This document shows positions 4,525-63,526 of a DNA stretch of 64,000 nt, piece after piece. A model generated the notes under the pieces. The model was not told where the DNA came from and did not search any database. It saw nothing but the letters and a program-made list of their open reading frames with translations. Source of the DNA: an uncultured delta proteobacterium. Lineage in GTDB: Bacteria > Myxococcota_A > UBA9160 > SZUA-336. Every line of letters begins with the position of its first letter. The first letter of the stretch is position 1. The stretch covers positions 576,001 through 640,000 of the forward strand of contig CAVPHD010000001.1 of the NCBI GenBank assembly GCA_963704165.1. Reading direction: 5' to 3'. The position numbers and the translations under genes are program-made.

Positions 4525-5841
4525 ATGACTGCCAGCACCCCGGGCCTCGTCTGTACGGACGGGGCGTCTTCACTTTGGAAGTCGGTGCTGAGCACCCTTG
4601 CGCATCGGCTGGCTCCCGGTACCCGCGACTCGCTCGCCCACGGCACGCACTGTCTCGGGCGAACGCCGGATTCGCTCCGGCTCGCGGCGAATCGGAGCGA
4701 GCTCGAATCGTGGATTCGCGCGGGACACATCAATGCGATCGAGACATCGCTCTCGAGCTCGACCGACGGTGCGGTGTCCCTTGCGCTGATCCCCGTCGAT
4801 GACGTCTCGGCGCTCCGAGCGGATCCGGTCTTCACCTTCGCGACTCTCGTTGCAAGCCCGGCGAACTCACGCGCGCACGCGCGCGCCCGAAGATTCGCGA
4901 GTGACGGGATCGCTTCTGGAGGTGGTCTCGCGATCCACGGCGCCGTCCGCTCGGGCAAGACCCACCTGCTGCGCGCGATCGCGGCGGCGCGCGGGGACTT
5001 CGATCCAGAGGGAACCGTCCTGTACCGGCGGGCCGATCAGCTCTCGCTCGATCTGGTGAGTGCGATCTCCACGGACGACGTCGACTCGTTCCGCGAGCAG
5101 CTGCTTGCCTCGACGGCCCTGCTGCTCGACGACGTTCACGAACTGCACGGCCGCGAGGCGACTCAGGAGGAGCTTCTGGGAATCCTCGATCTCTTCGAGG
5201 AGCGCGGGATCCCCGTGGCCATGGCCATGGCGAAGCCACCCGAGAGGTGCCCGGGGTTGATCGAGCCGCTGCGTAGACGCCTCACACGCCTGGAGTCGGT
5301 CGCGGTCCGCCCACCGGAATGGGAGACCCGGGTCGCCATCGTCCTGGCCCGGACCCGGAGCTGGGGCGTCGAGCCGAAGCCCTCGATCGCCGCCCTGCTC
5401 GCGAGCAACCTGCGGGGTGACCTCTCGCGCCTCGATGCGTTGCTGACGCGTCTCCTGTGCCAGTCGTCGTGGTGCAGCGGTCTCGAGGACGCCGAGGCCG
5501 TGAAGCTCCTGCTGAGCCACGCGAGCGACCCGCCCACCCTCATCACCCCAGAAGACGTGATGAACGCCGTCTCCCAGCAGTTCAATCTTCGCCCACGCGA
5601 CCTTCGCTCCGACAAGCGCAGCCCCCGCTTCACGACGCCGCGCCAGATCGCGATGTACCTGGTGCGACGCCACTGCGGGCTCTCTTACCCCGAGATCGGG
5701 CGACGATTCGCCAAACACCACACGACCGCGCTGCACTCGGACCGCGTGATCCAGAAACAGCTGGGTGAGAGCGCGAGCCTGCGCGCGGCGGTCCTCCTCG
5801 TCGAGAAGGAGCTGATGCGGGTCTCGGAGGCCGGTGGATAG
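4525..5841 (+). CDS. dnaA: DnaA-family replication initiator, highly divergent (copy 1, canonical locus)
   Basis: Lies between rpmH and dnaN. FTFATLV..AN, GAVRSGKTHLL, LLLDDVH, TQEE, PPEWETRVAI, RQIAMYL, SYPEIGRRF, HTT; several key residues are altered. Confidence 0.85.
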   Translation: MTASTPGLVCTDGASSLWKSVLSTLAHRLAPGTRDSLAHGTHCLGRTPDSLRLAANRSELESWIRAGHINAIETSLSSSTDGAVSLALIPVDDVSALRADPVFTFATLVASPANSRAHARARRFASDGIASGGGLAIHGAVRSGKTHLLRAIAAARGDFDPEGTVLYRRADQLSLDLVSAISTDDVDSFREQLLASTALLLDDVHELHGREATQEELLGILDLFEERGIPVAMAMAKPPERCPGLIEPLRRRLTRLESVAVRPPEWETRVAIVLARTRSWGVEPKPSIAALLASNLRGDLSRLDALLTRLLCQSSWCSGLEDAEAVKLLLSHASDPPTLITPEDVMNAVSQQFNLRPRDLRSDKRSPRFTTPRQIAMYLVRRHCGLSYPEIGRRFAKHHTTALHSDRVIQKQLGESASLRAAVLLVEKELMRVSEAGG

Positions 5842-6005
5842 TCGGTGGATAACGCGGGCACCCTGCCGGTACTCCCCATCTGCCTCCGGATTCTCGCGGA
5901 CTCCACCCGGCTCGCGGTGGAGAACATTCCCAGTGGCTGCCCTCAGATGAAGGAGTTTTCCAGATTTCTACGGTCCTCCCTCCTACTCCTACTCACTTTG
6001 CTTTA
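5833..6005. other. Candidate replication origin oriC (dnaA-dnaN gap)
   Basis: DnaA-box-like GGTGGATAG (5833), GGTGGATAA (5844), GACTCCACC (5899), GGTGGAGAA (5916). Then TTTTCCAGA-TTTCTACG-GTCC followed by CTC CTA CTC CTA CTC (5980-5994), the layout of the basal unwinding system. Confidence 0.65.
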
Positions 6006-6037
6006 AGATCAGAAGAGGAAGTGGGAGGAATTCGGAC

Positions 6038-7144
6038 ATGAAGCTGACGATCGAGCGCGACGAGCTTCTGCGAGGCTTGGGACGCGTGCAGGCCATCGTC
6101 GAACGCCGCGGGACCATGCCGATCCTCGCGAACGTGTTGATCGAGGCTCGCGAAGACGGGCTGACGCTCGCCGCGACCGACCTCGAGGTCGCCGTGGTCG
6201 CGGACCACCCCGCGACGGTGAAGACACCCGGAACCGTGACGCTGGGCGCGAAGAAGCTCTACGAGATCGTTCGAGAGCTCGAAGGTCCCGAAGTCGCGCT
6301 CAGCACCGAGGATGGCGCGCGGGTGACGCTCACCTGTGGACCGGCCAAGTTCACACTGCTCTCCACCTCGCCCGAGGAGTACCCGTCGATTCCGAGCTCC
6401 GACGGCGTCGCATTCGCGCAGATCGACACCGCGCTGGTTTCGGAGCTGATCGATCACACCCTCTACGCAACCTCGAACGACGAGACGCGGTACAACTTGA
6501 ACGGCGTCTTCCTCGAGAGCGCCGACGGCAAGCGGATCCGATTCGTCGCGACCGACGGGCATCGTCTGGCGATGATCGAGCGATCGGTGCCGACCGCGGT
6601 GGGCTTTCTCGCGAAGGGCATCATTGCACCGCGCAAGGGAGTGGCCGAAATCCGCAAGCTCTGTGACGAGGGCGAGGGCGCCGTCGATCTCGGGCTTGGC
6701 GACGGATTCCTGATGGTCCGGCGGCCCGGTCTCTTGCTCACGACCCGGCTCATCGACGGTGAGTTCCCAAACTACCGTCAGATCCTTCCCAAGGGCCACA
6801 AAGTCCGACTGCTCATGGACCGGGAGCGACTCCAGCACGCCGTGCGCCGCATCGCGCTCATGGCGCACGAGCGCTCTCGCGGCTTTCGATTCGTCCTCAG
6901 CGAGGGTCAGGTCGATCTTTCGGCCAGCAACCCCGATCTCGGTGAGGCGCGCGAGGTGCTGCCGGTCGAGTATCAGGGCGATCGCTTCGAGACGGCCTTC
7001 AACGCGCGCTATCTGCTCGACGTCCTCGGTGCGATGACGGCCAAGGAGGTCGTGCTCGAGCTCGCGGAGGAGCTCAGCCCGGCCCAGTTCCGGCCCGCCG
7101 ACGACCCAGACGAGGTCGCCGTGATCATGCCGATGAGGCTCTAG
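6038..7144 (+). CDS. dnaN: DNA polymerase III beta clamp
   Basis: ATDLEV, ETRYNLNGV, VATDGHRLA, LIDGEFPNY, FNARYLLD, VIMPMRL. Confidence 0.98.
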   Translation: MKLTIERDELLRGLGRVQAIVERRGTMPILANVLIEAREDGLTLAATDLEVAVVADHPATVKTPGTVTLGAKKLYEIVRELEGPEVALSTEDGARVTLTCGPAKFTLLSTSPEEYPSIPSSDGVAFAQIDTALVSELIDHTLYATSNDETRYNLNGVFLESADGKRIRFVATDGHRLAMIERSVPTAVGFLAKGIIAPRKGVAEIRKLCDEGEGAVDLGLGDGFLMVRRPGLLLTTRLIDGEFPNYRQILPKGHKVRLLMDRERLQHAVRRIALMAHERSRGFRFVLSEGQVDLSASNPDLGEAREVLPVEYQGDRFETAFNARYLLDVLGAMTAKEVVLELAEELSPAQFRPADDPDEVAVIMPMRL

Positions 7145-7261
7145 CCGAGAGCCTCTCTCTGGGTTAGTTTTCCGAGCGTTTGCAGCACCTTGCGCCGCAA
7201 CGGGCCCCTTGCATCCGTCGCCTGACGTTTCCGAGACGAGGTCGGTGCCAAAGCAGGGTAA

Positions 7262-9763
<2,502 letters not shown>

Positions 9764-9773
9764 GCGGAAATCC

Positions 9774-12239
9774 ATGACCGACACGCCAGAGACGCCCGCG
9801 CTGCCACCCGTGAATCCTCCGATTCCCGTCGCGATCGAGGACGAGATGCGCCGCTCGTTCCTCGACTACTCGATGTCGGTGATCATCAGCCGCGCACTTC
9901 CCGACGTGCGCGACGGCTTGAAGCCGTCGCAGCGGCGCATCCTCGTCACGTTCAACGACCTGAATCTCACCTCGGATCGGCCGTACCGGAAGTGCGCGAA
10001 GATCGCCGGCGACGTTTCGGGCAACTACCACCCGCACGGCGAGGCGGTGATCTACCCGTCGATCGTCCGCCTCGCGCAGCCGTTTTCGCTCCGCTACCCG
10101 CTCGTCGACGGCCAGGGGAACTTCGGATCGGTCGATGGCGATCCGCCCGCGGCCATGCGCTACACCGAAGCGCGTCTCACGAAGATCGCGGCGGAGATGC
10201 TCGCCGATCTCGAGCGCGAGACCGTCGATTTCGTCCCGAACTACGACAACACGCGCACCGAACCGATCGTCCTGCCGACGCGCATCCCGAATCTCGTCAT
10301 CAACGGGTCGTCGGGGATCGCGGTCGGCATGGCCACGAACATTCCCCCGCACAACCTCGGCGAGACCGCCGACGCCCTGATCCTGCTGGCGCGAAACCCG
10401 AAGGTGACGCTCGACGAGGTGATGGAGAAGCTTCCCGGGCCCGACTTCCCGACCGGCGCGCTGATCTGCGGCGGCAGCGGGATCCGCGAGGCCTACCGGA
10501 CCGGGCGGGGACTTCTCACCGTGCGCGCGCGCGCCTCGACCGAGGAGATGCGCGGCGGTCGCATCCGCATCGTGCTCGACGAGATCCCGTACATGGTCAA
10601 CAAGGCTTCGATGATCGAGAAGATCGCGGAGCTGGTGCGCGACGGGCGGATCGACGGGATCTCCGACGTGCGAGACGAATCCGACCGCCGCGGCATGCGC
10701 GTCGTGGTCGAGCTGAAGAAGGACGCCGACGATCAGGTCGTCCTGAACCAGCTCTTCAAGATGACGCCGATGCAGACGACCTTCGGTGTGAACATGGTCG
10801 CGCTGGTGCGGAACCGGCCACAGACCCTCGGTCTGATCCCGCTTCTCCAGTACTTCCTCGATTTCCGCCGCGAGGTCGTGCGCAGACGCGCGGCCTTCGA
10901 CCTCCGCCAGGCGGAGGCCCGTGCGCACATCCTCGAGGGTTTCGCGATCGCGCTCGACAACCTCGACGCGCTCATCGCGCTGATCCGAGCGAGCCAGAGT
11001 CCGGCCGCGGCGCGCGATGCGATGATGGCGCGCTTCTCTCTCTCCGAACGCCAGTCACAGGCGATTCTCGAGCTTCGACTCCAGCGGCTCACGGCAATGG
11101 AGCGCCAGAAGATCCTCGACGAGCTCGCAGAGGTGCGCGCGAAGATCGAAGAGCTGAAGGCGCTGCTCGCCAGCGACGAGAAGGTGACCGAGCTGATCAT
11201 CGGAGAGCTCACGGAGATGCGCGCGAAGTACGCCGACGCGCGCCGGACCGAGCTCGCGGCGCCAGTCGAGGACTTCACGACCGAAGATCTGATCGCGGAA
11301 GAGGACATGGTCGTGACGATCACCCACCGCGGTTACGCGAAGCGCCACGTGCCGACGCTCTATCGCGCACAGCGGCGCGGCGGAAAGGGGAAGGTCGCGG
11401 CATCGACGGCGGACGAGGACTTCGTTTCGATGGTCTTCGTCGCGTCGACCCACGCCTACCTGCTCTGCTTCACGAACAAGGGGCGCGTGCACTGGCTGAA
11501 GGTCTTCGAGCTGCCCGAGCTCTCCCGCGGCGCGAAGGGGAAGGCGCTCGTCAATCTGCTGTCCCTGGCCGAGGGCGAGCGGATTCAGGCGATCCTGCCG
11601 GTGCGCGACTTCGCCGAAGCCGGCTACGTCGTGCTGGCCACGCGCAATGGAACGATCAAGAAGACCGAGCTCGAGCAGTTCTCCAACCCGAGGCGCGGCG
11701 GAATCATCGCGATCAACATCGCCGACGGCGACGAGTTGATCGCGGCTTCGCGCACCGGCGACGGCGACCAGATCCTGCTCGCCACCCAGGACGGGAAGTC
11801 GATCCGCTTCAACGAAGAGCAGGTCCGCGCGATGGGTCGGTCCGCGACCGGCGTGCGTGGAATCTCCACCCGCGAGGGCGACGCCACCGTCGGCATGGAG
11901 GTGCTGAAACCCGGCAAGACCATCCTCACCGTTTCCGAGCATGGCTTCGGAAAGCGCTCGCCCCTCGACGAATACCGCGAGCAGAAGCGCGGCGGGCAGG
12001 GAATCATCACGATCAAGACGACCGAACGAAACGGGCAGGTCGTGGGGATCATGCAGGTCGACGATCGCGACGAGATCATGCTGATCACGAGCGGCGGGAA
12101 GATGATCCGCACGCGCGTCGCCGAGATCCCCACGATGAGCCGGAACACCCAGGGCGTTCGGCTCATGGAGCCGAACGAGGGCGAGCGAGTCGTCTCGGTC
12201 GCGAAGCTCGGCGAGGAAGACGAGGTCGAGGCCGAATGA
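9774..12239 (+). CDS. gyrA: DNA gyrase subunit A
   Basis: [14 protein letters not shown] (catalytic Tyr), GyrA box QRRGGKG, beta-pinwheel repeats. Confidence 0.98.
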
Positions 12240-13522
12240 ACACCGCGCGATCGAGGCAATTGCTCGAGCGCGCACGCACGCGGATTCCCGGCGGCGTCAA
12301 CAGCCCGGTGCGCGCGTTCGGCTCGGTGGGCGGACAGGCACGCTTCATCCGCTCGGCCGCGGGCGCGCGGATCGAGGACGAGGACGGGAACCGCTACATC
12401 GACTACGTCGCATCCTGGGGTGCGATCCTGCACGGACACGCACACCCGGCCGTGCTCGAGGCGATCGCGAAGGCCGCGGCGCGCGGAACGAGCTTCGGTG
12501 CACCGACCGAGGCCGAGGTCGTGCTCGCCGAACGCCTGTGCGCGCTCGTGCCGTCGCTCGAGATGGTGAGGCTCGTCTCGTCGGGCACCGAGGCGACGAT
12601 GAGCGCGATCCGACTCGCGCGTGGTGCGACCGGCCGCGACCGGATCCTGAAGTTCGACGGTTGCTACCACGGCCATCCCGATCACATGCTCGCTGCCGCC
12701 GGCTCCGGAGTCGCGACGCTCGGCATTCCCGGCACCGACGGCGTGCCGCGCGCGGCGGTCGCCGACACGGTGGTGTTGCCGTTCAATGATCTCGCCGCGG
12801 TCGAGGCGCTCTTCGCCGCGCGAGGCGATGAGATCGCGGCGGTGATCGTCGAGCCCGTCGCCGCGAACATGGGGCTGGTCTTGCCGGCCGACGGCTTCCT
12901 CGGTGGATTGCGCTCGGTCTGTGATCGGCACGGCGCGCTCTTGATCTTCGACGAGGTGATTACCGGTTTCCGTGTCGCGCTCGGCGGTGCGCAGGCGAGG
13001 TTCGGCGTCGCGCCCGACCTGACCACGTTCGGCAAGGTGATCGGCGGCGGTCTCCCGGTCGGCGCCTACGGCGGTCGGCGCGCGCTGCTGGAACGCATGG
13101 CGCCCGTCGGCCCGATCTACCAGGCGGGAACGCTCTCGGGCAATCCGCTCGCGACCGCAGCCGGGCTCGCGGTCCTCGATCTCGCGGCGCAGCCCGGTGT
13201 GTACGAACGGCTCGAAGCCGGCACGAAGCGCCTGGCCGACGGCCTCGCGGGCATCGCTCGCGAAGCCGGGGTCCCGTTCTCTGCCAGCTCGCTCGGCGGG
13301 GTCTTCGGTTTCTTCTTCCACCCCGGACCCGTTCGCAACTACGCCGACGCGCAGAAGGCCGACACGGCGGCATTTCGCAGCTTCTTCCACGCGATGCTCG
13401 AGCAGGGGATCTATCTGGCGCCTTCCGCCTTCGAGGCCGGCTTTCTCACGACCGCGCACGGCGATGCGGAGATCGAGAAGACGCTCGACGCCGCGCGGCG
13501 CGCGCTCACCCGGGCCGGCTAG
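12236..13522 (+). CDS. hemL: Glutamate-1-semialdehyde 2,1-aminomutase
   Basis: [61 protein letters not shown] overlap with gyrA. Confidence 0.97.
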
Positions 13523-13771
13523 ATGTCCGACCCGAAGTCGACCGGTCCGCGGCGGTCGGCGATCCGGATGGGTCGCGGAGTCGAAGCCGCCTGGGAGGCC
13601 GCCCTCTCGATCGTGCTCGGCGCGGTGCTCGGCATCTACGCCGATCGCTGGCTCGACACGTCCCCGATCCTGCTCTTCGTGTTCCTGACCCTCGGGGCGG
13701 TGGTCGCATTCCGGCGCTTGATCGCGCTCGGCAAGCAGGCCACGAAGGACGCAGAATCACCTCCGCGGTGA
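13523..13771 (+). CDS. AtpZ/AtpI family F0 accessory protein
   Basis: Two TMs with GIYADRWLDTSP (GxxxDxxxxTxP); precedes atpI and atpB. Confidence 0.8.
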   Translation: MSDPKSTGPRRSAIRMGRGVEAAWEAALSIVLGAVLGIYADRWLDTSPILLFVFLTLGAVVAFRRLIALGKQATKDAESPPR

Positions 13772-14130
13772 TGTGGCGCAGCGCTTCGTTGCACGCCAAG
13801 TACTCGTTCGTGCTCGCGCTTGCAATCGCGGGGGCGATTCCGTATGGATGCCACGCCGCTTGGAGCTTGGCCCTGGGCGGAGGGATTCAACTCGTGAATC
13901 TGAGCATCCTGGATCGAAGCGTGCGCGCCGTACTCTCGACCGGCGGCACCGGAAATGCGGCTTCACTGGCTCAGATCACGCTCGTGCTCCGGACCGTCGT
14001 CTTCTTCACCGCGGTGATCTACGTGCTCACATCCACACCTGCCAAGGCGCTCTTCTTCCTCGCGGGCCTTCTGGTCGTCGTCCCGGCTGCGATCTGGCAC
14101 GGACTCGCGCTCCCGGTGCGGGGGGACTGA
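13768..14130 (+). CDS. atpI: ATP synthase subunit I-like membrane protein
   Basis: Four-TM 120-aa protein (GGGIQLVNL) immediately before atpB. Confidence 0.65.
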   Translation: MMWRSASLHAKYSFVLALAIAGAIPYGCHAAWSLALGGGIQLVNLSILDRSVRAVLSTGGTGNAASLAQITLVLRTVVFFTAVIYVLTSTPAKALFFLAGLLVVVPAAIWHGLALPVRGD

Positions 14131-14131
14131 G

Positions 14132-14824
14132 GTGGGCCACCCTCCCTCGATCTACGACGCACTCGCGGCCACCGTGCCGGTGCTGTTTCAGTCGGTCATC
14201 GCCGGGATCCTGATCGTGGTGCTCGTCGCATGGCGCGTTCGCGCGAGCCTCGGCGCCGACGCCGTGATCCCCGACGGGCGCTTCACGCTGCGCAACTTCT
14301 TCGAGGTCGCCTTCGAGGGCATCGCATCGCTCGCGCACGAAGCGATCGGCCACGACTGGCGCAAGTACATGCCGATGCTCGCGACGCTCGGCATGTTCAT
14401 CCTGATCGGAAATCTGATGGGGCTCGTGCCGGGGCTTGGCGGGCCGACGTCCTACGTCGAGACGAATCTCTCCTGGGCGCTCGTCTCGGTCTTCACGGCC
14501 GAGGCGGCCGCGATCCGGGCGAACGGCATCGGGGGCTGGCTCAAGCACATGTCGCCCGGCCCGATCTGGATGGCGCCGCTGATGCTGCCGATCGAGCTGT
14601 TCAGCCACCTGGTCCGCTTCGTCACGCTCACGATCCGCCTCACGGCCAACATGTTCGCCGACCACACGCTGGCGGCGATCTTCATCGGCTTTGGCGGTGT
14701 GATCTCGGTGTTCGTGCCCTGGATCGTGCTCGGTCTCGGGGTCTTCATCTGCTTCGTGCAGGCGTTCATCTTCACCTTCCTCACCATTCTGTACATCGGG
14801 ATGGGTCTCGAGGAATCTCACTAG
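14132..14824 (+). CDS. atpB: F0F1 ATP synthase subunit a
   Basis: NLMGLVPG, PIELFSH, LTIRLTANMFADH (conserved Arg), VQAFIFTFL. Confidence 0.96.
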   Translation: MGHPPSIYDALAATVPVLFQSVIAGILIVVLVAWRVRASLGADAVIPDGRFTLRNFFEVAFEGIASLAHEAIGHDWRKYMPMLATLGMFILIGNLMGLVPGLGGPTSYVETNLSWALVSVFTAEAAAIRANGIGGWLKHMSPGPIWMAPLMLPIELFSHLVRFVTLTIRLTANMFADHTLAAIFIGFGGVISVFVPWIVLGLGVFICFVQAFIFTFLTILYIGMGLEESH

Positions 14825-14837
14825 AAAGGGAGTAGCG

Positions 14838-15146
14838 ATGCGTGCGTTCTTCTTCGTTGCGGCCGTCGTGGCCATGGCTCTCTCGCCCGATCTGGCCTTC
14901 GCGGCCGAGGAAGGCGGTGGATCGGGTTGGGGGATCGCGATCGGCTCGGGGCTCGCGATCGGCCTCGCGATTCTCGGCGCGGGCATCGGCCAGGGCATGA
15001 CCGCCGCGAACGCGGTCCAGGGCATTGCGCGCAACCCCGGTGCGGCCGGAGTGATCCAGACCCCGATGATCATCGGCCTCGCGCTGATCGAGTCGATCGC
15101 GCTGCTCGCCTTCGTCATCGCGTTCCTGATCCAGGGCAAGATCTAG
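14838..15146 (+). CDS. atpE: F0F1 ATP synthase subunit c with N-terminal leader-like extension
   Basis: GAGIGQG, GIARNP, LALIES (ion-binding Glu). Confidence 0.96.
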   Translation: MRAFFFVAAVVAMALSPDLAFAAEEGGGSGWGIAIGSGLAIGLAILGAGIGQGMTAANAVQGIARNPGAAGVIQTPMIIGLALIESIALLAFVIAFLIQGKI

Positions 15147-15195
15147 TCCGGCGGGATCCCGCGCGCTTCGAGCGCGGCGCCCCGACAACGACTCC

Positions 15196-15237
15196 GCGCC
15201 CGGGCGTTCACACGAGCGCCCGGGCGCTTCTGTATTT
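15196..15237 (+). terminator. Probable intrinsic terminator of the gyr-hemL-atp transcript
   Basis: 11-bp stem GCGCCCGGGCG / CGCCCGGGCGC, 10-nt loop, then TTCTGTATTT. Confidence 0.7.
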
Positions 15238-15251
15238 CGCGGGTTTGCGCG

Positions 15252-15267
15252 CGGCACGCGCCTTGCT
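15252..15267 (+). promoter_or_regulatory. Sigma54 (-24/-12) promoter
   Basis: CGGCACGCGCCTTGCT: GG-N10-GC with GGCACG and TTGC matching the consensus. Confidence 0.65.
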
Positions 15268-15277
15268 CTCTCGATCC

Positions 15278-15396: not shown

Positions 15397-15418
15397 ACCC
15401 CTGAGTCACACTGAAGGC

Positions 15419-51968: not shown

Positions 51969-52023
51969 CCAACCGCCTCTCGCCCCCTGCTATTCTGACG
52001 GCCGGATCACGGGGAGGCTCATC

Positions 52024-53664: not shown

Positions 53665-53675
53665 CCGCACGGATC

Positions 53676-54349
53676 TTGCCGACCCCCTCTGGGGGCCTGC
53701 GACGCCGGATCTTCCCGCCGACGGGCACCCGATCGCGAACGCGGTCTGCCGCGGGCTCGCAGACGCGCGCGGCGTCGTGTTCGCGGGTGGGCGGATCGAG
53801 GCGCTCGTTCGGGTCGAGGGAACGGTGCTCTCGACGAGCCGTGCCGACGCGACCGAGTACGGTGTAGCCCAGGTGCGCCGAGCGCTGGCCGCGAACGATC
53901 TGCGCGTCCTGCACGTCGTCTTCGCGCCGGCTGCGCGCCGAGCGCTCCTGCTCGGCTGGGTCCGGCTCGAGAACTCCGGGACGGAGCCGCTCGCGCTCGA
54001 GTACACCGAGACCTGGGACATCCCCGCCGGGGGCTACGCGTCGGTACCGGGCGCCTGTGAGCGGCGTTTCGGCGGACACGTCTTTGCGCTCGCGGATTGC
54101 GCGATCGTCTCGCGCGCGGAGCCGCCGGCGCAGCCGCCGACGCGCGGGCTGGCGCTCGATCTGCGTCTCGCTCTCCCGCCGCGAGCGCGGCGCCACCTCG
54201 CGTTCGCCTATGTCGCCGTGCCCGAGGAGGAGGATCCGGGAGCACTCGTGCGAGCGTTTCGCGGCGAGGTTGGCGCAAGCCTCGAGGAGATCGGCCGCTC
54301 GGGTCTCGACCTGGCAGCCTATCGCGCGCTCGGCCGATACACTCCGTGA
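53676..54349 (+). CDS. Hypothetical protein (start uncertain; probable missing C near 53686)
   Basis: Open frame with coding-like codon bias from about 53688 to 54349; no family recognised. Confidence 0.45.
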
Positions 54350-54351
54350 AG

Positions 54352-55053
54352 ATGTCGAAACCCCGCTCGATGCACCGGGTCGCGAAGCTCTCGATCGCCT
54401 TGCTCATCGCCGTAGCGCTCGCGCCGGACTACGCGCAGGCCGGGCACAGCACCGACATCGTCCGGGAAACCTTTCGAACGCTCGACAGCGGCGACGGCCG
54501 CGTCGCGAGCTTCTGGTGGCTTCCGCAGGAGTACTGGGAACAGGTCGCCAAAGAGCTCGGAGTTCCGGCCGAGGAGCAGGAGAAGGTGCGCGTCGTATTC
54601 CGCGACTACCTGCTCGTCGGCGCGCTCGAGACGAAGCTCGACGGCGAGAAGAAACCGGGGTTCGCCAGCATCGCCGAGATCGCGAAGCGCGCGAAGTTCT
54701 ACCGCAACTCCGAGCCCGTAGAGGTGCTGCGCGACGTGAATCCCGAGCTCGCGCGCCTCGCGCCGGGCCTGGTGTACCTGCTCCGCGCATCGCTCGCGGG
54801 GCTCGGCGAAGGGCTGCGCCTGCTTCCGCTTGCGAACGTCGATGCGAAAGGGAACCCGATCCTCGCCGGATCTGCGCCCGGTGAGCTGCGGCTCGAGTAC
54901 CGCTTCGATGACGCCAGCCCGCCCCGTGAGGTGATCTGGCGCGGGCCGTTCACGGCGGTCGTCGGAGCGGTGAAGTGTCCGAAGGGCGGAGAGGCGCTCG
55001 AGGCGAACTACGGTTGGTGTCCCTGGCACGGAGTGAAGCTCGACGGCAAGTGA
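54352..55053 (+). CDS. Secreted hypothetical protein with C-terminal Cys/His motif
   Basis: Signal peptide (..IALLIAVALAPDYAQA); C-terminal CPKGGE...WCPWHG. Confidence 0.7.
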   Translation: MSKPRSMHRVAKLSIALLIAVALAPDYAQAGHSTDIVRETFRTLDSGDGRVASFWWLPQEYWEQVAKELGVPAEEQEKVRVVFRDYLLVGALETKLDGEKKPGFASIAEIAKRAKFYRNSEPVEVLRDVNPELARLAPGLVYLLRASLAGLGEGLRLLPLANVDAKGNPILAGSAPGELRLEYRFDDASPPREVIWRGPFTAVVGAVKCPKGGEALEANYGWCPWHGVKLDGK

Positions 55054-55079
55054 TCGGCGGCGAGCTTCCGGCCCGCGCT

Positions 55080-55706
55080 TCAGATCGGTGCGAAGACGAC
55101 GTCGATCTCGATCGGCACCGCGCCCGAGACGGCTTCGTGGCCGCAGACGGCCTTCAGGACCGCGAGCGCCTGCTCGAGTCCGAGGTCCTTCGCGGAGAGC
55201 ACGACGGGTCGGGTGTTGCGCACGCGGATCCGGTCGCGCGTCGTGCGCGTGATGCGCACCGGAACCGAGAGCGGGAACTTGGAACCGTGGATCGAGAGCT
55301 CCCCGCTGAGCGTCGTCTCGAGCTCCGAGCCGGGTGCGGTCAACGTCGCGACGCTCGGCGTCCCGGTCATCGCGAACCGCGCGGCCGGAAAGCCGACCGA
55401 GTCGAAGAAGTGCGCGCGCAGGTTCTCGTCGCGGCCGGCGTCACCGGTGTGGACGGTTCCGACACGCACCTCCACCCAGCCTTCGCTCTTCGCGACATCG
55501 AAGCCGCCCTCCATGCCCGTGAACGAGCCCGGCACGGCGACCGCGTTGTTCTTGATGCCGATGAACGAGATCACCGATTCCGACGGCACGAGCAGCCAGA
55601 GCCCCGTGACCGGCACCCTCGCGGAGCTGCCGAATACGCCGCTTCCCTGACAGGAAAGCAGTGCTGCGGTGGCGGCGACGACGAGTGCGGTGTGTGCGTA
55701 CTTCAC
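55080..55706 (-). CDS. YceI-like lipid/polyisoprenoid-binding lipoprotein
   Basis: Lipobox LLSC; SVISF, TGDAGRDENLR..FFD...FP.A.F, GELSIHG. Confidence 0.8.
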   Translation of the reverse strand: MKYAHTALVVAATAALLSCQGSGVFGSSARVPVTGLWLLVPSESVISFIGIKNNAVAVPGSFTGMEGGFDVAKSEGWVEVRVGTVHTGDAGRDENLRAHFFDSVGFPAARFAMTGTPSVATLTAPGSELETTLSGELSIHGSKFPLSVPVRITRTTRDRIRVRNTRPVVLSAKDLGLEQALAVLKAVCGHEAVSGAVPIEIDVVFAPI

Positions 55707-56899
55707 GACGCGTCCCGAATGCAGGCTTCCAGGATGTCGAGCGCCTGGCCGAGATCGCTCTCGGGGATGTTCAACGCGGGGAAGAGCCGCAGCACGCGAT
55801 CCGCCGTCAGATTGACGAGGAGCCCGCGTTCGCGCGCCTCCGAATGCACCCGCAAGGCGAGTGCGGGATCGCGCAGAACCAGGCCGATCAGCAAGCCGAG
55901 TCCGCGCGCGCACTCCACCTTCGCGGGCTCCGATCTCGCGAACGCGCCGAGGCGAGCGAGCACGTCCTTGCCGACGACCGCGGCGCGTTCGACGAGTCGC
56001 TGCTCCTCGATCACGCGAATCACCGTCGCTCCCGCGCGGCAGGCGAGCGGATTGCCCGCATAGGTGCCGCCGTGGTCGCCGGGCTGGATCGCGGCCATGA
56101 CCTCCTCGGTCGCCATGAAGGCCGCGAGCGGAAAGCCGCCGCCGAGTCCCTTGCCGAGCGTGACGATGTCGGGAGTGACGCCCGCGTGATCGCAGGCGAG
56201 CCAGCGGCCCGTGCGGCCGACGCAGGTCTGCACCTCGTCGGCGATCAGGAGCGCACCCGCCGCGTGACACGCATCGGCGACACGTCGCAGGTAGTCGGGA
56301 GGCGGAACGATCACGCCGCCCTCACCCTGTACGGGCTCGACGATGAACGCGGCGATCTCCGGAGACAGCGCGGCCTCGAGCGCGGCCGCGTCACCGTAGG
56401 GCACGAAGACGGCCTCGCGAACGATCCCCTTCCAGGGTCCGCGGTATTTCTCCTGGCCGAGGCAGCCCATCGCCCCGAGCGTTCGGCCGTGAAAGCTGTT
56501 CAGCGTGGCCACGAAGCGATTGCGGCCGGTCTTGCGCGCGGCGAGCTTGAGCGCGCCCTCGTTCGCCTCCGCGCCGCTCGACGTGAAGAACGATTGGTGG
56601 ATGCCGCGCGGTGCGAGGCGCGCGAGCCGATCGGCCAGATCGAGCTGCGGCCGCGTGTAGACGATGTTGGTCGTCTGCATCAGCGTGCGCGCCTGATCGG
56701 CGATCGCGTCGGCGAGCTCCGGGTGACAGTGACCGATCGAGGTCACGCCCCAGCCGGCGGTCAGGTCGATGAACTCGCGGCCTTCCACGTCCCAGACGCG
56801 CGATCCCGAGCCGCGCTCGAGAGCGACGGGCCAGCGGCGCACCGATGGCATGAAGACCTGTTTCTCGCGGGAGACGATCGCATCGAAGATCTCGGACAT
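55703..56899 (-). CDS. argD: Acetylornithine/class-III aminotransferase
   Basis: SGAEANEGALKLA, SFHGRTLG, EPVQGEGG, DEVQT, GKGLGGG, HGGTYAGNPL. Confidence 0.88.
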   Translation of the reverse strand: MSEIFDAIVSREKQVFMPSVRRWPVALERGSGSRVWDVEGREFIDLTAGWGVTSIGHCHPELADAIADQARTLMQTTNIVYTRPQLDLADRLARLAPRGIHQSFFTSSGAEANEGALKLAARKTGRNRFVATLNSFHGRTLGAMGCLGQEKYRGPWKGIVREAVFVPYGDAAALEAALSPEIAAFIVEPVQGEGGVIVPPPDYLRRVADACHAAGALLIADEVQTCVGRTGRWLACDHAGVTPDIVTLGKGLGGGFPLAAFMATEEVMAAIQPGDHGGTYAGNPLACRAGATVIRVIEEQRLVERAAVVGKDVLARLGAFARSEPAKVECARGLGLLIGLVLRDPALALRVHSEARERGLLVNLTADRVLRLFPALNIPESDLGQALDILEACIRDAS

Positions 56900-57092
56900 G
56901 ATTTCACCTCGGGCTTGCGAGTGACTCGATCAGGGGAGCACGTGACGTGCAGCTTCTGAGTCCCGCCGGCGGGAGGAGATCGTACGGATCTATCCGCGCC
57001 GGTGGGACCCGGTACGGGCGCGACGCGCGGACACGTGATCGAAGATCGCGAAGAGCATCGGCCGCGCAGAATGCTGCAGAGGAAATTGCGTG

Positions 57093-57836
57093 TCAATCGA
57101 GCAGGCGCTCGAGGCCGGCCAGGTCGTCGATCACGTGATCCGGTGCCGGACCCTCGTAGCCGCGAAGCGCGGCCTCCGGGTCGGCGACACGTCGGGTGAG
57201 CCAGGCCGTGCGCATGCCAATCCGCGCAGCGCCGCCGACGTCGGCTTCGAGGTTGTCACCGACGTGGATCACGTCCCCGGGATCGGCGCCGATCCGATCG
57301 AGCACGGCTTCGAAGATTTCCGCGCGCGGTTTGCGGATCCCGACCTCGTCCGAGATCACGACCAGGTCGAAGTGCTCGAGCAAGCCGGCCTGTGCGAGCA
57401 CCAGGCGCGCGGTCTCGCCGTGGCTGAAGTTCGAGCAGACGGCGAGCGCCACGCGCCCGTGCAGGCGCGCGAGCAGCGCCGCGTGGTGGCCGAGATGGCT
57501 CACGTGCTCGCGAATCGCGCTCATGTGCGTGCTCGTCATGGACTGCGCCATCTCGGCCTGCGGACTTCCGATCCGCCGCCCGAAGGCCAGGAATCGCTCC
57601 AGCGTCGGCAGCTCGCGGTGCTCCGCGTAGTAGGCGTGGCGCAGCTCGCGGTCGCTCGAGCCGAGCTCCGCGGCAAATCGCTCGAATTCCAGACCGTGCC
57701 ACTGCACACTGGCGGCGTGAAGAAGTCCGAAGGTAGACGGCGTGCGACGCCCCGCGATCTCGATGCGGGGAAGGCGGTCCATGTGCACGTCGACGAGCGT
57801 GTCGAAAAGGTCGATCGAGAGTGCACGGACCGGCAC
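57093..57836 (-). CDS. HAD-superfamily hydrolase
   Basis: DLFDTLV, CSN, RKP, HVGDNLEADVGGA. Confidence 0.9.
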   Translation of the reverse strand: MPVRALSIDLFDTLVDVHMDRLPRIEIAGRRTPSTFGLLHAASVQWHGLEFERFAAELGSSDRELRHAYYAEHRELPTLERFLAFGRRIGSPQAEMAQSMTSTHMSAIREHVSHLGHHAALLARLHGRVALAVCSNFSHGETARLVLAQAGLLEHFDLVVISDEVGIRKPRAEIFEAVLDRIGADPGDVIHVGDNLEADVGGAARIGMRTAWLTRRVADPEAALRGYEGPAPDHVIDDLAGLERLLD

Positions 57837-57854
57837 GCGGCGCAAGATAGCCGC

Positions 57855-58706
57855 GTGCGCTGGATCGTGCAGGGCGAGAACCTGGACGTGCTTCGCGCGC
57901 TTCCCGACGCGCTCGTCGATCTCGTCTACATCGATCCGCCGTTCAACACCGGCCGCACGCAGCGACGCACGCGTCTTCGCGTGGAGCGTGTCGAGATCGG
58001 AGGCGATCGCACGGGCTTCGCGGGCCGGCGCTACGAGAGCCACGTGGTCGGCGTCTCGTCCTTCGACGACAGGTTCGAGGATTTCCCGGCGTTTCTCGAG
58101 CCACGGCTCGTCGAAGCGCGCCGGGTTCTGAAGCCCACCGGCTCGTTGTTCGTGCACCTCGACCCGCGCGAGTCCCACTACGTGAAGGTTCTGCTCGACC
58201 GCCTCTTCGGCCGAAGCTCGTTCATGAACGAGATCGTCTGGGCGTACGACTACGGCGCGCGCTCGCGAACGCGCTGGCCGGCGAAGCACGACACGATTCT
58301 TTGGTACGCGATGGACCCCGCTCGCTTCACCTACGAGTACGACGCGATCGACCGCATCCCGTACGCGGCGCCCGGCCTGGTCGGTCCCGAGAAGGCCGCG
58401 CGCGGCAAGACGCCGACGGACGTCTGGTGGCAGACGATCGTGCCGACGAACTCGCGCGAGCGCACCGGCTACGCGACACAGAAGCCGCTCGCGATCCTGT
58501 CGCGGATCGTCGCCGTGCACTCGCGTCCGGGCGATCTCGTGCTCGACTTCTTCGCCGGAAGTGGCACGACGGGCGAGGCCGCGGCCCGCCTGGATCGGGG
58601 CTTCATCTTGGTCGATTCGAGCCCCGACGCGGTGCGCGTGATGACCGAGCGCCTCGCCTTCGCGAAGCCAAAAACCCTTACGTCACGTCAGCTTGTTGGC
58701 CCGTAG
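57855..58706 (+). CDS. DNA methyltransferase, N6/N4 beta class (orphan)
   Basis: LVYIDPPF (motif IV) precedes YATQKP and LDFFAGSGTTG (motif I). Confidence 0.92.
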   Translation: MRWIVQGENLDVLRALPDALVDLVYIDPPFNTGRTQRRTRLRVERVEIGGDRTGFAGRRYESHVVGVSSFDDRFEDFPAFLEPRLVEARRVLKPTGSLFVHLDPRESHYVKVLLDRLFGRSSFMNEIVWAYDYGARSRTRWPAKHDTILWYAMDPARFTYEYDAIDRIPYAAPGLVGPEKAARGKTPTDVWWQTIVPTNSRERTGYATQKPLAILSRIVAVHSRPGDLVLDFFAGSGTTGEAAARLDRGFILVDSSPDAVRVMTERLAFAKPKTLTSRQLVGP

Positions 58707-58728
58707 AGGCCGATGTTAGCCTGCCCGA

Positions 58729-59943
58729 GTGCCGACCGAGACCCCCCAAGCTGAGCTCCGCGAGCGGATCCGGAAGGCCGTAGACGCCGAGCCGCTCGAC
58801 CGTCTCGCGGCGATCGAGATCATGACGCGGATCGAGCGCGCGCCGGAGACGATCCTCGAGCCGCTGCTCGACGCCGCGCGCGAGCTCGGCATCCGCGGGC
58901 ATGGGCGCGTGGTCTCGGTCTCGCGAAACGTCTTCATCCCGCTCACCAATCTGTGTCGCGACCGCTGTGGCTACTGCACGTTCGCGGTCGAGCCCGATTC
59001 ACCAAAGGCGAAGACCTGGCGGCTCGACGAGGTGCGCGACACGTCCCGCCGCGCTCGCGCGCTCGGTTGTCTGGAGGCGCTTTTCTGTCTCGGTGACAAG
59101 CCGGAGGTCGCCTATCGCGGCTACCGCGCGTGGCTCTCCGAGCGCGGCTACGCGCGCACGACCGACTACCTCGCCGACGCCTGTGCGGTCGCGTACGAGG
59201 AGGGCATGTTCCCGCACACGAACGCGGGAATCATGTCGCCCGACGAGATGACGCGTCTGCGCCGCACGAACGCGAGCATGGGGCTGATGCTCGAGAGCAC
59301 GAGCGCGCGGCTCCGCCAACGCGGGGGTGCGCACTATTACGCGCCCGACAAGGAGCCCGAGAAGCGCATCCGCATGACGCGCGAGGCCGGCGAGCTGCGG
59401 ATTCCCTTCACGAGCGGGATTCTGGTCGGCATCGGCGAGACGGCCGAAGAGCGCGTCGACACGCTCTGCGCGATCCGCGACCTGCACGCCGAGCACGGAC
59501 ACATCCAGGAAGTGATCGTGCAGAACTTCCATCCCAAGCCCGGCACCGCGATGGCGGACGTGCCGATGCCGAGCGACGAGCTCATGGCGGGCACGACGGC
59601 GCTCGCGCGGCTGATTCTCGGACCGCAGATGAACCTGCAGGCTCCGCCGAATCTCTCGCCGACCTCCCTCGAGCTGCTTCTGCGGGCGGGCATCAACGAC
59701 TGGGGGGGCGTGTCGCCGCTGACGATCGACTTCATCAACCCCGAAGCGCCCTGGCCCGAGCTCGACGAGCTGCGCCGTCGCACCGAGGCGGGCGGTTACG
59801 AGCTTCGGGACCGGCTCTGTGTCTATCCCGACTACATCACCGAACGGCCCGAGTTCTTCGAGCCGGAGATGCTGCGACGACTGCGCGCGATCACCGACGC
59901 GCAAGGCTGGCCAAGGAGCCTCGATGCCCATGCAACGCGCTGA
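58729..59943 (+). CDS. cofG: FO synthase subunit CofG
   Basis: SRNVFIPLTNLCRDRCGYC, EALFCLGDKPE, PHTNAG, SMGLMLE, GHIQEVIVQNF, QAPPNL, DWGGVSP..D..NPE.PWP. Confidence 0.93.
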   Translation: MPTETPQAELRERIRKAVDAEPLDRLAAIEIMTRIERAPETILEPLLDAARELGIRGHGRVVSVSRNVFIPLTNLCRDRCGYCTFAVEPDSPKAKTWRLDEVRDTSRRARALGCLEALFCLGDKPEVAYRGYRAWLSERGYARTTDYLADACAVAYEEGMFPHTNAGIMSPDEMTRLRRTNASMGLMLESTSARLRQRGGAHYYAPDKEPEKRIRMTREAGELRIPFTSGILVGIGETAEERVDTLCAIRDLHAEHGHIQEVIVQNFHPKPGTAMADVPMPSDELMAGTTALARLILGPQMNLQAPPNLSPTSLELLLRAGINDWGGVSPLTIDFINPEAPWPELDELRRRTEAGGYELRDRLCVYPDYITERPEFFEPEMLRRLRAITDAQGWPRSLDAHATR

Positions 59944-61162
59944 CCTGTCCGACACACTTCTGCGTGGAACGAGCACACCCGTGCGCGCGGTGCTCGAGCG
60001 TTCGCTCGAAGGGCGAGAACTCTCGCGTGCCGACGTGGAGGTCCTGCTCGGCGCCGGGGGCCGGGATCTACAGGTCCTGTGCGCCGTCGCCGACAGCGCG
60101 CGCTTCGACGACGTAGGTGACGAGATCTCCTACGTCGTCTGCCGGAACATCAACTTCACGAACATCTGCTACGTCGGCTGCAGCTTCTGCGGCTTCGCGC
60201 GGCACAAGCACGAGGAAGAGGCCTACGATCGGACGCTCGAGGACGTCGTGGGCCGCGCGCGCGAAGCGGTCGCGCGCGGTGCTTCGGAAGTCTGCATCCA
60301 GGGCGGAATCCATCCCAACAAGGACGGATTCTGGTACCGCGAGATCGTCCGCGCGATCAAGGCCGAGCTTCCGGACCTGCACATCCATGCGTTCTCGCCC
60401 GAGGAGATCCACTTCGGTCACCAGAAGTCGAAGGGCATGTCGCTGCGCGACTACCTCTCGATGCTGAAGGCCGAGGGACTCGGCTCGATCCCGGGCACCG
60501 CCGCCGAGATCCTCGACGACGAGGTCCGTCGCATCCTGTCGCCGCGCAAGCTGATGACCGATCGCTGGGTCGAGATCGTCACCACCGCCCACGAAGTCGG
60601 ACTGCGCTCGAGCTCGACGCTGATGTACGGACACATCGAGCAACCGCACCACATCGCCGGCCACCTCGAGCTCTTGCGCGAGATCCAGAAACGCACCGGT
60701 GGCTTCACCGAGTTCGTGCCGCTCGGGTTCATCCACCACAAGACGCGGCTCTACAACGAGCAAGGGTCACGCGCCGGCGCGACGATGCCCGAGGATCTGC
60801 GGCTGATCGCGATCGCACGTCTCTTCCTGCGGCCTTGGATCAAGAACGTGCAGATCTCGTGGGTGAAGATGGGTTTCAAGATCGGACAGATCGCGCTGAT
60901 GTCGGGCGCAAACGACTTCGGTGGCACGCTGATGGAGGAATCGATCAGCAACGCCGCTGGCTCGGAGCACGGAGATCACGTCGAAGCCGAGACGATCGAG
61001 CAGCTGATCCGCGAGATCGGCCGCACGCCCTACGAACGCACGACCACCTACGGGCGGCGCGAAGCGAAGCGGCTCGCGCCCGCGCGAACGCTCGGTCTCG
61101 AGCTTGCGCCGGACACGCGCGTGTCGAAGGGCCACGATCTTGCGGTCCCGAGCGGCTACTGA
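59924..61162 (+). CDS. cofH: FO synthase subunit CofH
   Basis: NINFTNICYVGCSFC, EVCIQGGIHP, PGTAAEILDD, GGFTEFVPL, NVQISWVK, NDFGGTLMEE; follows cofG. Confidence 0.92.
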   Translation: MPMQRADLSDTLLRGTSTPVRAVLERSLEGRELSRADVEVLLGAGGRDLQVLCAVADSARFDDVGDEISYVVCRNINFTNICYVGCSFCGFARHKHEEEAYDRTLEDVVGRAREAVARGASEVCIQGGIHPNKDGFWYREIVRAIKAELPDLHIHAFSPEEIHFGHQKSKGMSLRDYLSMLKAEGLGSIPGTAAEILDDEVRRILSPRKLMTDRWVEIVTTAHEVGLRSSSTLMYGHIEQPHHIAGHLELLREIQKRTGGFTEFVPLGFIHHKTRLYNEQGSRAGATMPEDLRLIAIARLFLRPWIKNVQISWVKMGFKIGQIALMSGANDFGGTLMEESISNAAGSEHGDHVEAETIEQLIREIGRTPYERTTTYGRREAKRLAPARTLGLELAPDTRVSKGHDLAVPSGY

Positions 61163-61207
61163 GCACGTCTCTCAAGACGCACGTCGGGTTCCGACGATGA
61201 GCCAGCC

Positions 61208-62235
61208 ATGAGAAGAGTCCTGGTCACGGGCGGCGCGGGCTTCATCGGCTCGCACTTCATCCGCATCCTGCTCGCGGAAGAGCCGGACGCGGAGGTCGTC
61301 AACCTGGACGTGCTCACCTACGCCGGGAACCTCGCGAATCTGGCCGACGTCTCGGGCTCGAAGCGCTACCGCTTCGTGCGTGGCGACATCCGCGACATGA
61401 AGGTCGCGCTGGAGCTGGTCGCGGACTCCGACTGGATCGTGAACTTCGCAGCCGAGTCGCACGTCGATCGCTCGACGAAGGCGCGCGCGGGCGAGTTCAT
61501 CGACACCAACGTCTACGGCGCGTACGTCATGCTCGAAGCGACACGCCAGGTGAATCGCGACGCGCGCTTTCTCCAGGTCGGCACCGACGAAGTCTACGGC
61601 GACGTGCCCTTCCCCGAGTTCCCGGACGAGCAGGCGATGCTGAGGCCCTCGAGCCCGTACTCGGCGGCAAAGGCCGGTGCAGACCACATCGCCCTCGCCT
61701 TCCACCGAACGCACCGGATGGACGTGCTCGTCTCGCGCTGCACGAACAACTACGGCCCGAATCAGTACCCCGAGAAGGTGATCCCGGTGTTCATCACCAA
61801 CTCCCTCGACGGCGTTCCGCTGCCGCTCTACGACGGCGGAACGCAGGTGCGCGACTGGCTGCGCGTCGAGGACCACTGCCGCGCGCTGCTCCTCTTGCTC
61901 CGTCGCGGAACCGCGGGCGAGATCTACAACATCGGCGCGAACCAGACGCCCGAGGTCACGAACGCCGAGCTCACCAAGATGATTCTCGACTCCACCGGTC
62001 GCCCCGAGACGCTGATCCGTCCGGTCGAGGGGCTGCGGCCGGGGCACGACCACCGCTATGCCGTCGACACCGCCAAGGTTCGCGCGCTCGGCTGGCGCCC
62101 CGCCGAGGATCTCCAAGCCGGGATCGCCAAGACCGTCGCGTGGTATCGAGAGAACCGCGCCTGGTGGGAGCCGATCAAATCGGGGAGTACCGCGAGTACT
62201 ATGAGAAGCACTACGGTGAGGCGGTGCGCCGCTGA
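61208..62235 (+). CDS. rfbB: dTDP-glucose 4,6-dehydratase (missing G at 62182-62185)
   Basis: TGGAGFIG, FAAESHVDRS, TDEVYG, PSSPYSAAK, NNYGP.QYPEK. One extra G gives ...IKSGEYREYYEKHYGEAVRR-stop at 62235. Confidence 0.95.
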
Positions 62236-63526
62236 CGCGTTGCGCGAGCGCCTCGAGCTCGTAGCGAAGTTGTGGCTTCTCGACGATTCGTCGCTGCACG
62301 ACATCGATCGCGTACATCACGCTCGTGTGATCGCGGCTGAAGGCGCGCCCGATCTCGGCCAGTGACGCGTCGGTGTAGATCCGCGCCAGGTACATCGCGA
62401 TCTGACGCGGCCGCACGAGACTCTGCTTGCGGGAACGGGCACGCAGATCTTCCTTGCCGATGCCGTACGCTCGCGCGGTCTCGGCCATGATCTCCTCGAG
62501 CGATCGGGCGCGCCCCGGGAGCTCGACCGCGGCGAGCGCCTGTGCGACGAGCTCGGGCGTGATCGCCGTCTTCATCAGGGATGCGCGCGCGACGACCTGG
62601 TTCAAACCTCCGACCAGATCGCGAACCGAGGCGAGCTCGCGCCGCGCGAGCAGCTCGAGGCAGGCCTCGGGCACGCGCACGCCGCCACGCGCGGCGCGCT
62701 CGCGCAGGATCGCCAGGCGCGTTTCCTGCTCGGGCGGCGCGATGCACGCGACCAGCCCGGAGGCCATGCGCGAGGAGAGCTTCGGGTCGAGCTCGTCGAG
62801 CTCCGCCGGCGGGCGATCCGCAGAGAGCACGACCGTCCTTCCGTTCGACATCAGGTGGTCGAGCGTGTGGAAGAGCTCGACTTGCGTCGCGCGCTTGCCC
62901 GCGAGGAACTGCACGTCTTCGAGGATCAGGACGTTCGTCGAGCGTCGGTAGCGATGGCGAATCCGCGGCATCTGCCCGGCGCGAATCGCATCGGTCACCT
63001 CGGTCGTGAACTGCTCGCTCGACCGATAGGTCGCCGCATTCCCCAGGCGCGTGTGGATCGCGCGGCACAGGTGCGTCTTCCCCATCCCGGTGTTCGCGTA
63101 GAGAAAGAGCGGACTGCAGCGACCCGCCTGGCCGCGCGCGATCAAGCGAGCGGCCTCGAGCGCGAGCGCATTCCCCGGCCCCTCGATGAAGCTCTCGAAC
63201 AACCGCTCCTGCGAGCCCGAGTCCACGGCCGGCTCGAGCGGCGCCGGAGCGGGCTCGGCCGCGGCGGGCGCGCGCGCGGGCGGAGCCGATGCGACGACCG
63301 AGTCGACGCGGTAGTCCACGGAACGCACGCCGCTCGCGCACTCCTCGATCAGCTTGCCGTAGCGGCCGCGCAGCCAGTCCCGGCTGAAGCGATCCGGACA
63401 GCGCAGCACCAGCGTCTCGCCTTCGAGCCGTCCGTCGAGCGCCCGGAACCAGGCCTCGAACACAGCCTCGCCGACGCGCCGTCGCAGCTCCGTGCGAACG
63501 GCCTCCCACCCCCCGAATTTGTCCAT
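62175..63526 (-). CDS. dnaA: DnaA-family replication initiator (copy 2)
   Basis: Domain I (WEAVRTELRRRVGEAVFEAWF..PDRFSRDW), FESFIEGPGN, PLFLYANTGMGKTHL, EDVQFLAGK..TQ.ELFHT, SADR, SVRDL, RQIAMYLAR, RDHTSVMYA. The stop at 62175 is restored by the same single-G fix. Confidence 0.9.

Follow-up and report, generated by a model that had tools for sequence, protein, structure and literature searches.

Two DnaA paralogs with possibly exchanged roles: the origin-linked copy as a putative non-catalytic controller with a box variant of its own

Where one dnaA gene lies beside dnaN and a second lies far from it, which of the two products initiates replication, and what does the other do? The question is raised by the window analysed here, a 64,000-nucleotide stretch from an uncultured delta proteobacterium (positions 576001-640000 of contig C1; genome G000, 3.87 Mb, 84% complete; features are given in window numbering). 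It carries dnaA1 (4525-5841, + strand), which adjoins dnaN, and the off-site dnaA2 (62175-63526, - strand), here also called copy 1 and copy 2. A first-pass annotation had reported two DnaA-family open reading frames with complementary motif losses, and both are real, each product matching the Bac_DnaA and Bac_DnaA_C profiles. Neither a third dnaA, canonical or otherwise, nor an Hda-like third Bac_DnaA match was found when the 84% complete genome was searched with hidden Markov models, and the pair is present in 29 of 32 genomes of the family. The best explanation, which sequence comparison makes about an even call, is that DnaA2 initiates and that DnaA1 is a non-polymerising DNA-binding regulator, probably acting on an array of boxes upstream of dnaA2.

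DnaA1 (438 aa) is a degenerate DnaA at the canonical locus, as judged by its open reading frame, profile matches, alignments and a structure model. It is 25% identical to DnaA2 (105 of 417 columns), has no DnaA_N match in the profile search, and scores 210.5 on TIGR00362, below the cut-off of 343.9. Its AlphaFold2 model is confident (predicted local distance difference test score, pLDDT, 89; predicted template modelling score, pTM, 0.82), and the best structural matches are DnaA structures. On alignment to E. coli DnaA (from NC_000913.3; its numbering is used for residues such as D269, R334 and F46), the residue calls of the first-pass annotation all held, and the residues described as lost did not reappear. 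DnaA1 has A236 in place of D269, S301 for R334, L37 for W25, E59 for F46 and H398 for D433, and retains the Walker B residues D202 and D203, V178, and R252 at the R285 position. D269 serves tight nucleotide binding; R334, W6 and the length of domain II are taken to have the functions generally known for DnaA. F46 binds the helicase (PMC6127211, partial text).

Residue conservation was counted across 89 homologs of copy 1 and 96 of copy 2. Walker A K178 is present in all 89 copy-1 homologs, D235 in 87 and D236 in 78, the last being lost in several distant members. Sensor I D269, sensor II R334, F239, L290 and N187 fall outside the four commonest residues at their positions, and the F46 position holds Glu, Arg, Gln or Asp. 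An Arg finger at R285 had been described as kept in both copies, which is correct for the two window proteins (R252 and R253) but not for the group, since it is present in just 36 of the 89 copy-1 homologs. On one filament face F128, R206, H231 and L269 are lost and R264 is mostly lost; on the other, N187, F218 and G317 are lost. R202, E183 and R321 are retained. H252 is not kept, and W6 is. In B. subtilis, the R264A replacement prevents oligomerisation (PMC10721633, in the part available). Domain II is nearly gone, the median distance from W6 to F141 being 90 aa in copy 1, 106.5 aa in copy 2 and 115 aa in DnaAs of the phylum encoded beside dnaN. The earlier description of domains I-IV in each protein is corrected on this point for DnaA1.

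The DNA-binding domain is kept. Among the 89 homologs, P423, H433 and T436 occur in 89 and H434, T435 and H439 in 88. Five of the six residues of the base-contact set (R399, P423, D433, H434, T435, H439) are kept in 87-89 sequences, and D433 is fixed as His; R399, P423, H434, T435 and H439 are named as base contacts in the available sections of PMC2533591 and PMC5043019. The new recognition helix HHTT..H is fixed, and the change from RDHTTV to KHHTTA, listed earlier as a loss, is present but is not decay because H398 is invariant (89/89). Over the whole gene, the ratio of non-synonymous to synonymous substitution rates (dN/dS; Nei-Gojobori, 12 close, non-independent pairs) stays under 0.5 in 12/12 pairs, hence not near 1, and by domain amounts to 0.01-0.17 for domain IV, 0.10-0.48 for domain III and 0.15-0.62 for domain I, with domain IV the most constrained. 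Domains I and III evolve fast (mean identity 37% and 43%). No internal stop was found in 29 copy-1 frames, two of which are cut by contig ends. By these measures, purifying selection acts on copy 1, an old paralog, and appears to be directed at DNA binding. Sixteen more distant copy-1 members show AAA+ decay that is further advanced, with P423, H433 and H434 in 16/16; considered as missing links to canonical DnaA, all 16 fell inside the copy-1 clade. Copy-1 proteins 73-74% identical to DnaA1 were found in two records labelled Myxococcota and Deltaproteobacteria bacterium.

DnaA2 matches DnaA_N in addition to the two shared profiles and is the only copy to pass the TIGR00362 cut-off (362.8 versus 343.9). 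Aligned to E. coli DnaA, it has E203, T178, D237, R302 and R253. Its 96 homologs keep D269 in 78, R334 in 92, R285, F46 and R227 in 96, L290 and F239 in 95, and H252 in 94; the exceptions are Gln at 342, Thr or Ser at 208, mostly Ala or Ser at G338, Thr211 (95/96) and a Walker B Glu235. The recognition helix is DHTSVxY, with P423 and H439 mostly changed, and dN/dS is 0.06-0.18 for domain III and 0.07-0.38 for domain IV. Copy 2 is likely the working initiator, because the sole DnaAs of the sister families are, by phylogeny and gene neighbourhood, its orthologs and these genomes have no dnaA beside dnaN: the 289-869 bp gap between rpmH and dnaN is without a DnaA match in 16/16 sister-family genomes, and likewise in G015, a member of the family discussed below. 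The first-pass annotation had set in-frame changes in the two genes against indels elsewhere in the contig, but dnaA2 itself is without one base in the C-run at 62182-62185 when compared with 4/4 aligned relatives. This shifts the last codons past the stop at 62177-62175, removing the dnaA2 stop, and is probably an assembly error. As dnaA2 overlaps an rfbB-like gene tail to tail, the 3' ends of both genes are shifted.

At least two DnaA_C matches were found in 29/32 family genomes, the remaining three (G015, G016 and G042) being 71-75% complete; one further genome, G013, has a weak third match. In 28 of 29 copy-1 loci dnaN starts 178-203 bp after dnaA1, and the remaining locus is cut off by the end of its contig. 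Of the 193 class genomes from outside the family, exactly one DnaA_C match was seen in 164 (assigned to the copy-2 type in the 18 checked), more in 19 and none in 10. The copy-1 type was not found in the 25 of these genomes searched with a copy-1 profile, namely all 19 with at least two matches and six from rare families. The best scores there were 169-215 bits, besides two matches of 243-258 bits in G236, which is 6% contaminated; true copy-1 controls scored 369 and 501. A metagenome scan covering 1/64 parts gave 80 loci, 3 of which were checked; one of the 80 was a family locus, and it carried copy 1. The sister-family set comprised 18 sole DnaAs (dnaA loci including L003-L006, L009, L012 and L014) and origins from 16 genomes (L075-L090). 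These sole DnaAs are themselves unusual, with Gln, His or Glu at the Arg-finger position in 12/18, W50 replaced by Arg in 17/18 and the helix DHP(A/S)VxN.

In the main DnaA tree, a quick tree of 59 of 116 sequences, the sole DnaAs group with copy 2 in a single clade (Shimodaira-Hasegawa-like approximate likelihood ratio test, SH-aLRT, 99). The sister of this clade (99) is the second, off-site copy of G050; this genome belongs to another class and has a dnaA next to dnaN as well. Copy 1 forms a separate, long-stemmed clade. A topology uniting copies 1 and 2 was rejected by the approximately unbiased (AU) test on 33 sequences (p-AU 0.0145). Recent duplication within the family is thereby rejected and the duplication is older than the family; on this phylogeny it predates the split of the family from its sister families. 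An old duplication left one copy at the canonical locus and one off-site, behind a gene for a Lon-N-domain protein (so named from its sequence), and the sister families retain only the off-site type. The Lon-N-domain neighbour is common to copy 2 and 14/18 sister-family loci, and short flanks may explain the misses. The preferred reading is that the ancestral gene was retained, with two losses. G050 (loci L109 and L110) is alone in its class; its dnaN-adjacent dnaA has Asp for F46 and its off-site paralog has a box pair upstream, and it may represent an early stage of the same split.

Where would each protein bind? The gap between dnaA1 and dnaN (6038-7144, + strand; beta clamp) is the predicted origin (oriC). 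Alignment of 28 gaps, combined with a motif, placed three boxes of class I (TTHTCCACM) on the - strand at 5833-5841, 5844-5852 and 5916-5924, the first of which overlaps the dnaA1 stop codon. A predicted basal unwinding element follows at 5956-6010 (+ strand), with tandem boxes at 5956-5964 and 5965-5973, a short spacer, DnaA-trio-like repeats at 5980-5994 and an AT-rich tail. This layout of inverted boxes, tandem pair, trio-like repeats and AT-rich tail before dnaN was recognised by eye and matches that of the B. subtilis basal unwinding system (BUS) as described in part of PMC10721633. The class I motif and the class II motif described below were both grown from the same canonical seed, using one genome for each of 14 genera, so that sites are non-independent; z scores were computed with the scored genus left out of motif training. 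Class I boxes reach z 2.7-6.2 in 29/29 origins scored, and the genome's best class I cluster falls in the dnaA1-dnaN gap, though the motif was trained on that gap. GC skew is weak: the cumulative skew on C1 flattens from ~500 kb and reaches its minimum at 660 kb, with the gap at 582 kb. The canonical order rpmH-dnaA-dnaN-gyrB is marked by rpmH (L34) at 4185-4334 on the - strand, which was named from its translation and a match to the E. coli locus (L091).

Upstream of dnaA2, the leader holds a predicted promoter (TTGC ... TGGGAGAGT) with a conserved GCGAAA element upstream at 63592-63649 (- strand), which was not picked up by a sigma-70 consensus scan. Beyond it, at 63763-63799 (- strand), lies an array of class II boxes (63787-63795, 63775-63783 and 63763-63771) with a 12-bp period and a conserved TTCGC element. 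The class II consensus is NNRTNCACA-G on the + strand, and arrays consist of up to three boxes with 10-12 bp spacing. The two box classes differ at both ends: TT occupies positions 1-2 in 43/56 oriC sites versus 4/42 leader sites, and CACA occupies positions 6-9 in 10/56 versus 33/42. P423 and H439, kept in copy 1 and mostly changed in copy 2, presumably touch the 3' end of the box, a part in which class II tolerates little variation and class I more. In nearly all family genomes the dnaA2 leader is bordered by inverted GCGAA elements (63643-63649 and 63795-63799) separated by ~150 bp, and phased A/T tracts lie further upstream.

The array tracks copy 1, which together with the difference in consensus is the new observation here. 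It scores z 2.2-4.8 in 31/32 dnaA2 leaders, and the exception (z=0.9) is G015, the one genome (73% complete) shown to be without copy 1 at its locus. The oriC of G015 still has class I boxes (z=5.1), and in its leader the flanking TTCGC and GCGAAA elements and the promoter are still there, spaced as usual. The off-site copy of G050, whose genome has two copies, is preceded by a box pair with 12-bp spacing at -290/-278; four single-copy off-site relatives have 0, 1, 0 and 0 boxes.

These observations suggest the following mechanism. DnaA2 would bind the class I boxes between dnaA1 and dnaN, polymerise on the trio repeats and load the helicase. DnaA1, which by alignment has kept domain IV, D235 and the Walker A Lys while losing D269, R334, F46, L290, H252, F239, N187 and a stable Arg finger, may hold nucleotide weakly without hydrolysing it or extending a filament, and may dimerise through domain I, where W6 is kept. 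Taken jointly with the old duplication and the retention of only the off-site type in sister families, and with no regulated target named, this much is considered probable. The least certain step is the last, in which DnaA1 would bind the NNRTNCACA-G array and set the level of DnaA2, whether by DNA looping or by acting as a roadblock against read-through. The regulator of copy 2 that the first-pass annotation had offered as an alternative was the better of its ideas and gains support from dN/dS below 0.5, the constrained domain IV and the array that tracks copy 1.

Several points weigh against DnaA1 as a regulator of dnaA2. The correlated loss within the family comes from G015 (n=1), where copy 1 could lie in unassembled DNA, and G016 and G042 carry the array without an assembled copy 1, G016 being also without dnaN. 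The array is separated by 150-170 bp from the predicted -35 element of dnaA2 downstream, and its head-to-tail 12-bp spacing fits a cooperative filament, which DnaA2 could form but DnaA1 probably could not. A genome-wide search for a class II regulon with this low-information motif gave nothing clear (1076 matches in 22 clusters, with the dnaA2 array ranking 8th). Sister families read a different box, so that their lack of an array says little: in a search seeded with a TTGTCGG variant, this class III box reached z of at least 2 in 11/16 of their origins, where class I z is at most 1.2. Copy 1 also keeps the equivalents of B. subtilis R202, K222, E228, I190 and T225, which in the first protomer contact the forked DNA (PMC10721633) and which promoter binding does not require. 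As to history, the AU test did not reject a grouping of both copies with the sole DnaAs as a clade (p-AU 0.36), and G015 branches first in a DnaN+YidC tree (0.92) but not in DnaA trees, so that copy 1 may have been re-inserted after the G015 split; given the first-branching G015, both copy 1 and the array may be late gains.

The fork contacts suggest a different role, unlikely but better placed than the other alternatives, in which DnaA2 initiates and DnaA1 would work at oriC, binding the trio-adjacent box and gripping the fork and first trio as a cap, timer or loose anchor for DnaA2. R202, K222 (Arg or Lys), E228 and T225 (Thr or Ser), which include the fork contacts of protomer 1 (PMC10721633, partial text), are kept in 80, 88, 80 and 88 of the 89 copy-1 homologs, dnaA1 stays beside oriC in 28/29 loci, and no Hda was found (two Bac_DnaA matches only), so that a negative regulator could be needed. 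However, G015 has a full set of class I boxes at oriC but no copy 1 at the locus, copy 1 varies on the Arg-finger face, which protomer 1 requires, and this role would not explain why G015 has selectively lost the dnaA2 array.

The filament-like spacing would be accommodated if DnaA1 regulates other genes and the array consists of low-affinity DnaA2 sites for autoregulation of dnaA2. Such autoregulation of dnaA through promoter boxes is established (PMC5835720, in the text available), the 12-bp period fits a cooperative filament, and a single loss of the array could be chance; yet the array goes with two copies (31 leaders and G050) and is absent in G015 and the four single-copy off-site relatives, while no other class II cluster stood out and the dnaA1 promoter has no boxes. 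This account is regarded as quite doubtful.

Still more improbable is the hetero-filament of the first-pass annotation, an obligate mixture in which each protein supplies what its partner has lost. The copies co-occur strictly in the family, residue 211 is Val or Ile in 86/89 copy-1 and Thr in 95/96 copy-2 sequences, and R342 is kept in 77/89 copy-1 sequences and is Gln in copy 2 (for DnaA residues in this comparison, see also the accessible part of PMC6669920). However, the sole DnaAs of the sister families have the same supposed losses without a partner (Glu235 in 16/18, Gln342 in 18/18 and Thr211 in 5/18), which makes them traits of the class; contacts on either filament face are gone from copy 1; G015 is without copy 1 at its locus; and 164/193 class genomes outside the family have a single DnaA_C match, with the copy-2 type checked for 18. 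The complementary losses thus did not withstand comparison. A last reading takes dnaA1 for a relic in slow decay that persists because its promoter and 3' end are bound up with oriC and the expression of dnaN. This agrees with the fast-evolving domains I and III, the box over the stop codon and its absence from other families, but hardly with 29 frames free of internal stops, a domain IV dN/dS of 0.01-0.17, a fixed new recognition helix, a confident whole-protein model (pLDDT 89) and a conserved promoter element of its own, and is given the least credence.

Both copies share the AAA+ and helix-turn-helix domains of canonical DnaA (TIGR00362; E. coli; B. subtilis BUS, PDB 8BTG/8BV3), and the DnaA1 model superimposes on 8bv3 with a template modelling score of 0.86 by target length and a root mean square deviation of 2.8. 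Relative to canonical DnaA, copy 1 falls below the family cut-off, lacks sensors I and II and F46, and has lost the greater part of its filament contacts and of domain II, while copy 2 passes the cut-off but is off-site and has Glu235, Thr211, Gln342 and the helix DHTSVxY. With Hda/HdaA, which are DnaA-related regulators, copy 1 would share the role of a DnaA paralog that controls the initiator. Hda lacks domain IV and depends on its Arg finger, whereas copy 1 keeps domain IV (Bac_DnaA_C), loses the finger and scores 57.7 on TIGR03420 (cut-off 194.8). PRK12422, taken here to be the chlamydial second DnaA, has a cut-off of 657 and gives 114 for copy 1 and 189 for copy 2. As in E. coli dnaA autoregulation, boxes upstream of a dnaA gene are proposed to set its level, but here a second paralog, one that does not initiate and has a box variant of its own, would take over that task. 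Genomes with two dnaA genes (Chlamydia, Desulfovibrio, Pirellula and others) numbered 40 of 1,067 in the available part of PMC3080875, and two genes are likewise noted in Chlamydiae (PMC4009838, partial text) and in Desulfovibrionia and Chlamydiales (bioRxiv 10.1101/2025.08.05.668638, in part). In these, two full-length dnaA genes are also kept across a lineage, a likeness drawn from descriptions that assign no roles to the two copies. No publication on this DnaA pair, or on a canonical-locus DnaA turned regulator, was found in a search that left most subscription papers outside.

The initiator and regulator jobs of DnaA are hard to separate, since a single essential protein carries them both. 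Here they seem to have been divided by evolution between two genes, which, if true, provides a natural separation, with natural controls in the family member without copy 1 and the sister families with only the off-site type. Among the descriptions found here, it would be the first concrete, testable division of labour for a two-dnaA genome. More broadly, the comparisons suggest, at somewhat less than an even chance, that the roles of the two paralogs were swapped, the ancestral origin-linked DnaA having become a dedicated, non-catalytic DNA-binding controller with its own box code that acts on the gene of the off-site paralog, the present initiator, and that three helix/box pairs co-evolved. 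If the roles are swapped, the three box classes would pair with three helices within one class (HHTT..H, DHTSVxY and DHP(A/S)VxN), and these pairs are usable for testing the DnaA recognition code. A dnaA beside dnaN need not be the initiator, which calls for caution.

The dnaA1 gene has a promoter-like element at 4448-4477 (+ strand), found by alignment of 27 upstream regions, in which TTGCWWTGCNGCGC is followed by an extended -10-like TG-n-TA. The element is near-palindromic and strongly conserved; its exact 14-mer occurs in 24/32 family genomes and is single-copy in 22 of these. Boxes at the dnaA1 promoter were not above those in shuffled sequences. PhaR was considered as a regulator of dnaA1 and rejected: a PhaR-type gene is present, but the element, itself single-copy, does not precede that gene.

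One family genome, G002, has two copy-2-type genes (L021 and L054) on different contigs, both adjoining an rfbB-like gene, which may reflect contamination (4%). Elsewhere in the window, two adjacent radical-SAM genes at 58729-61162 were recognised by eye as resembling cofG and cofH of F420 precursor synthesis.

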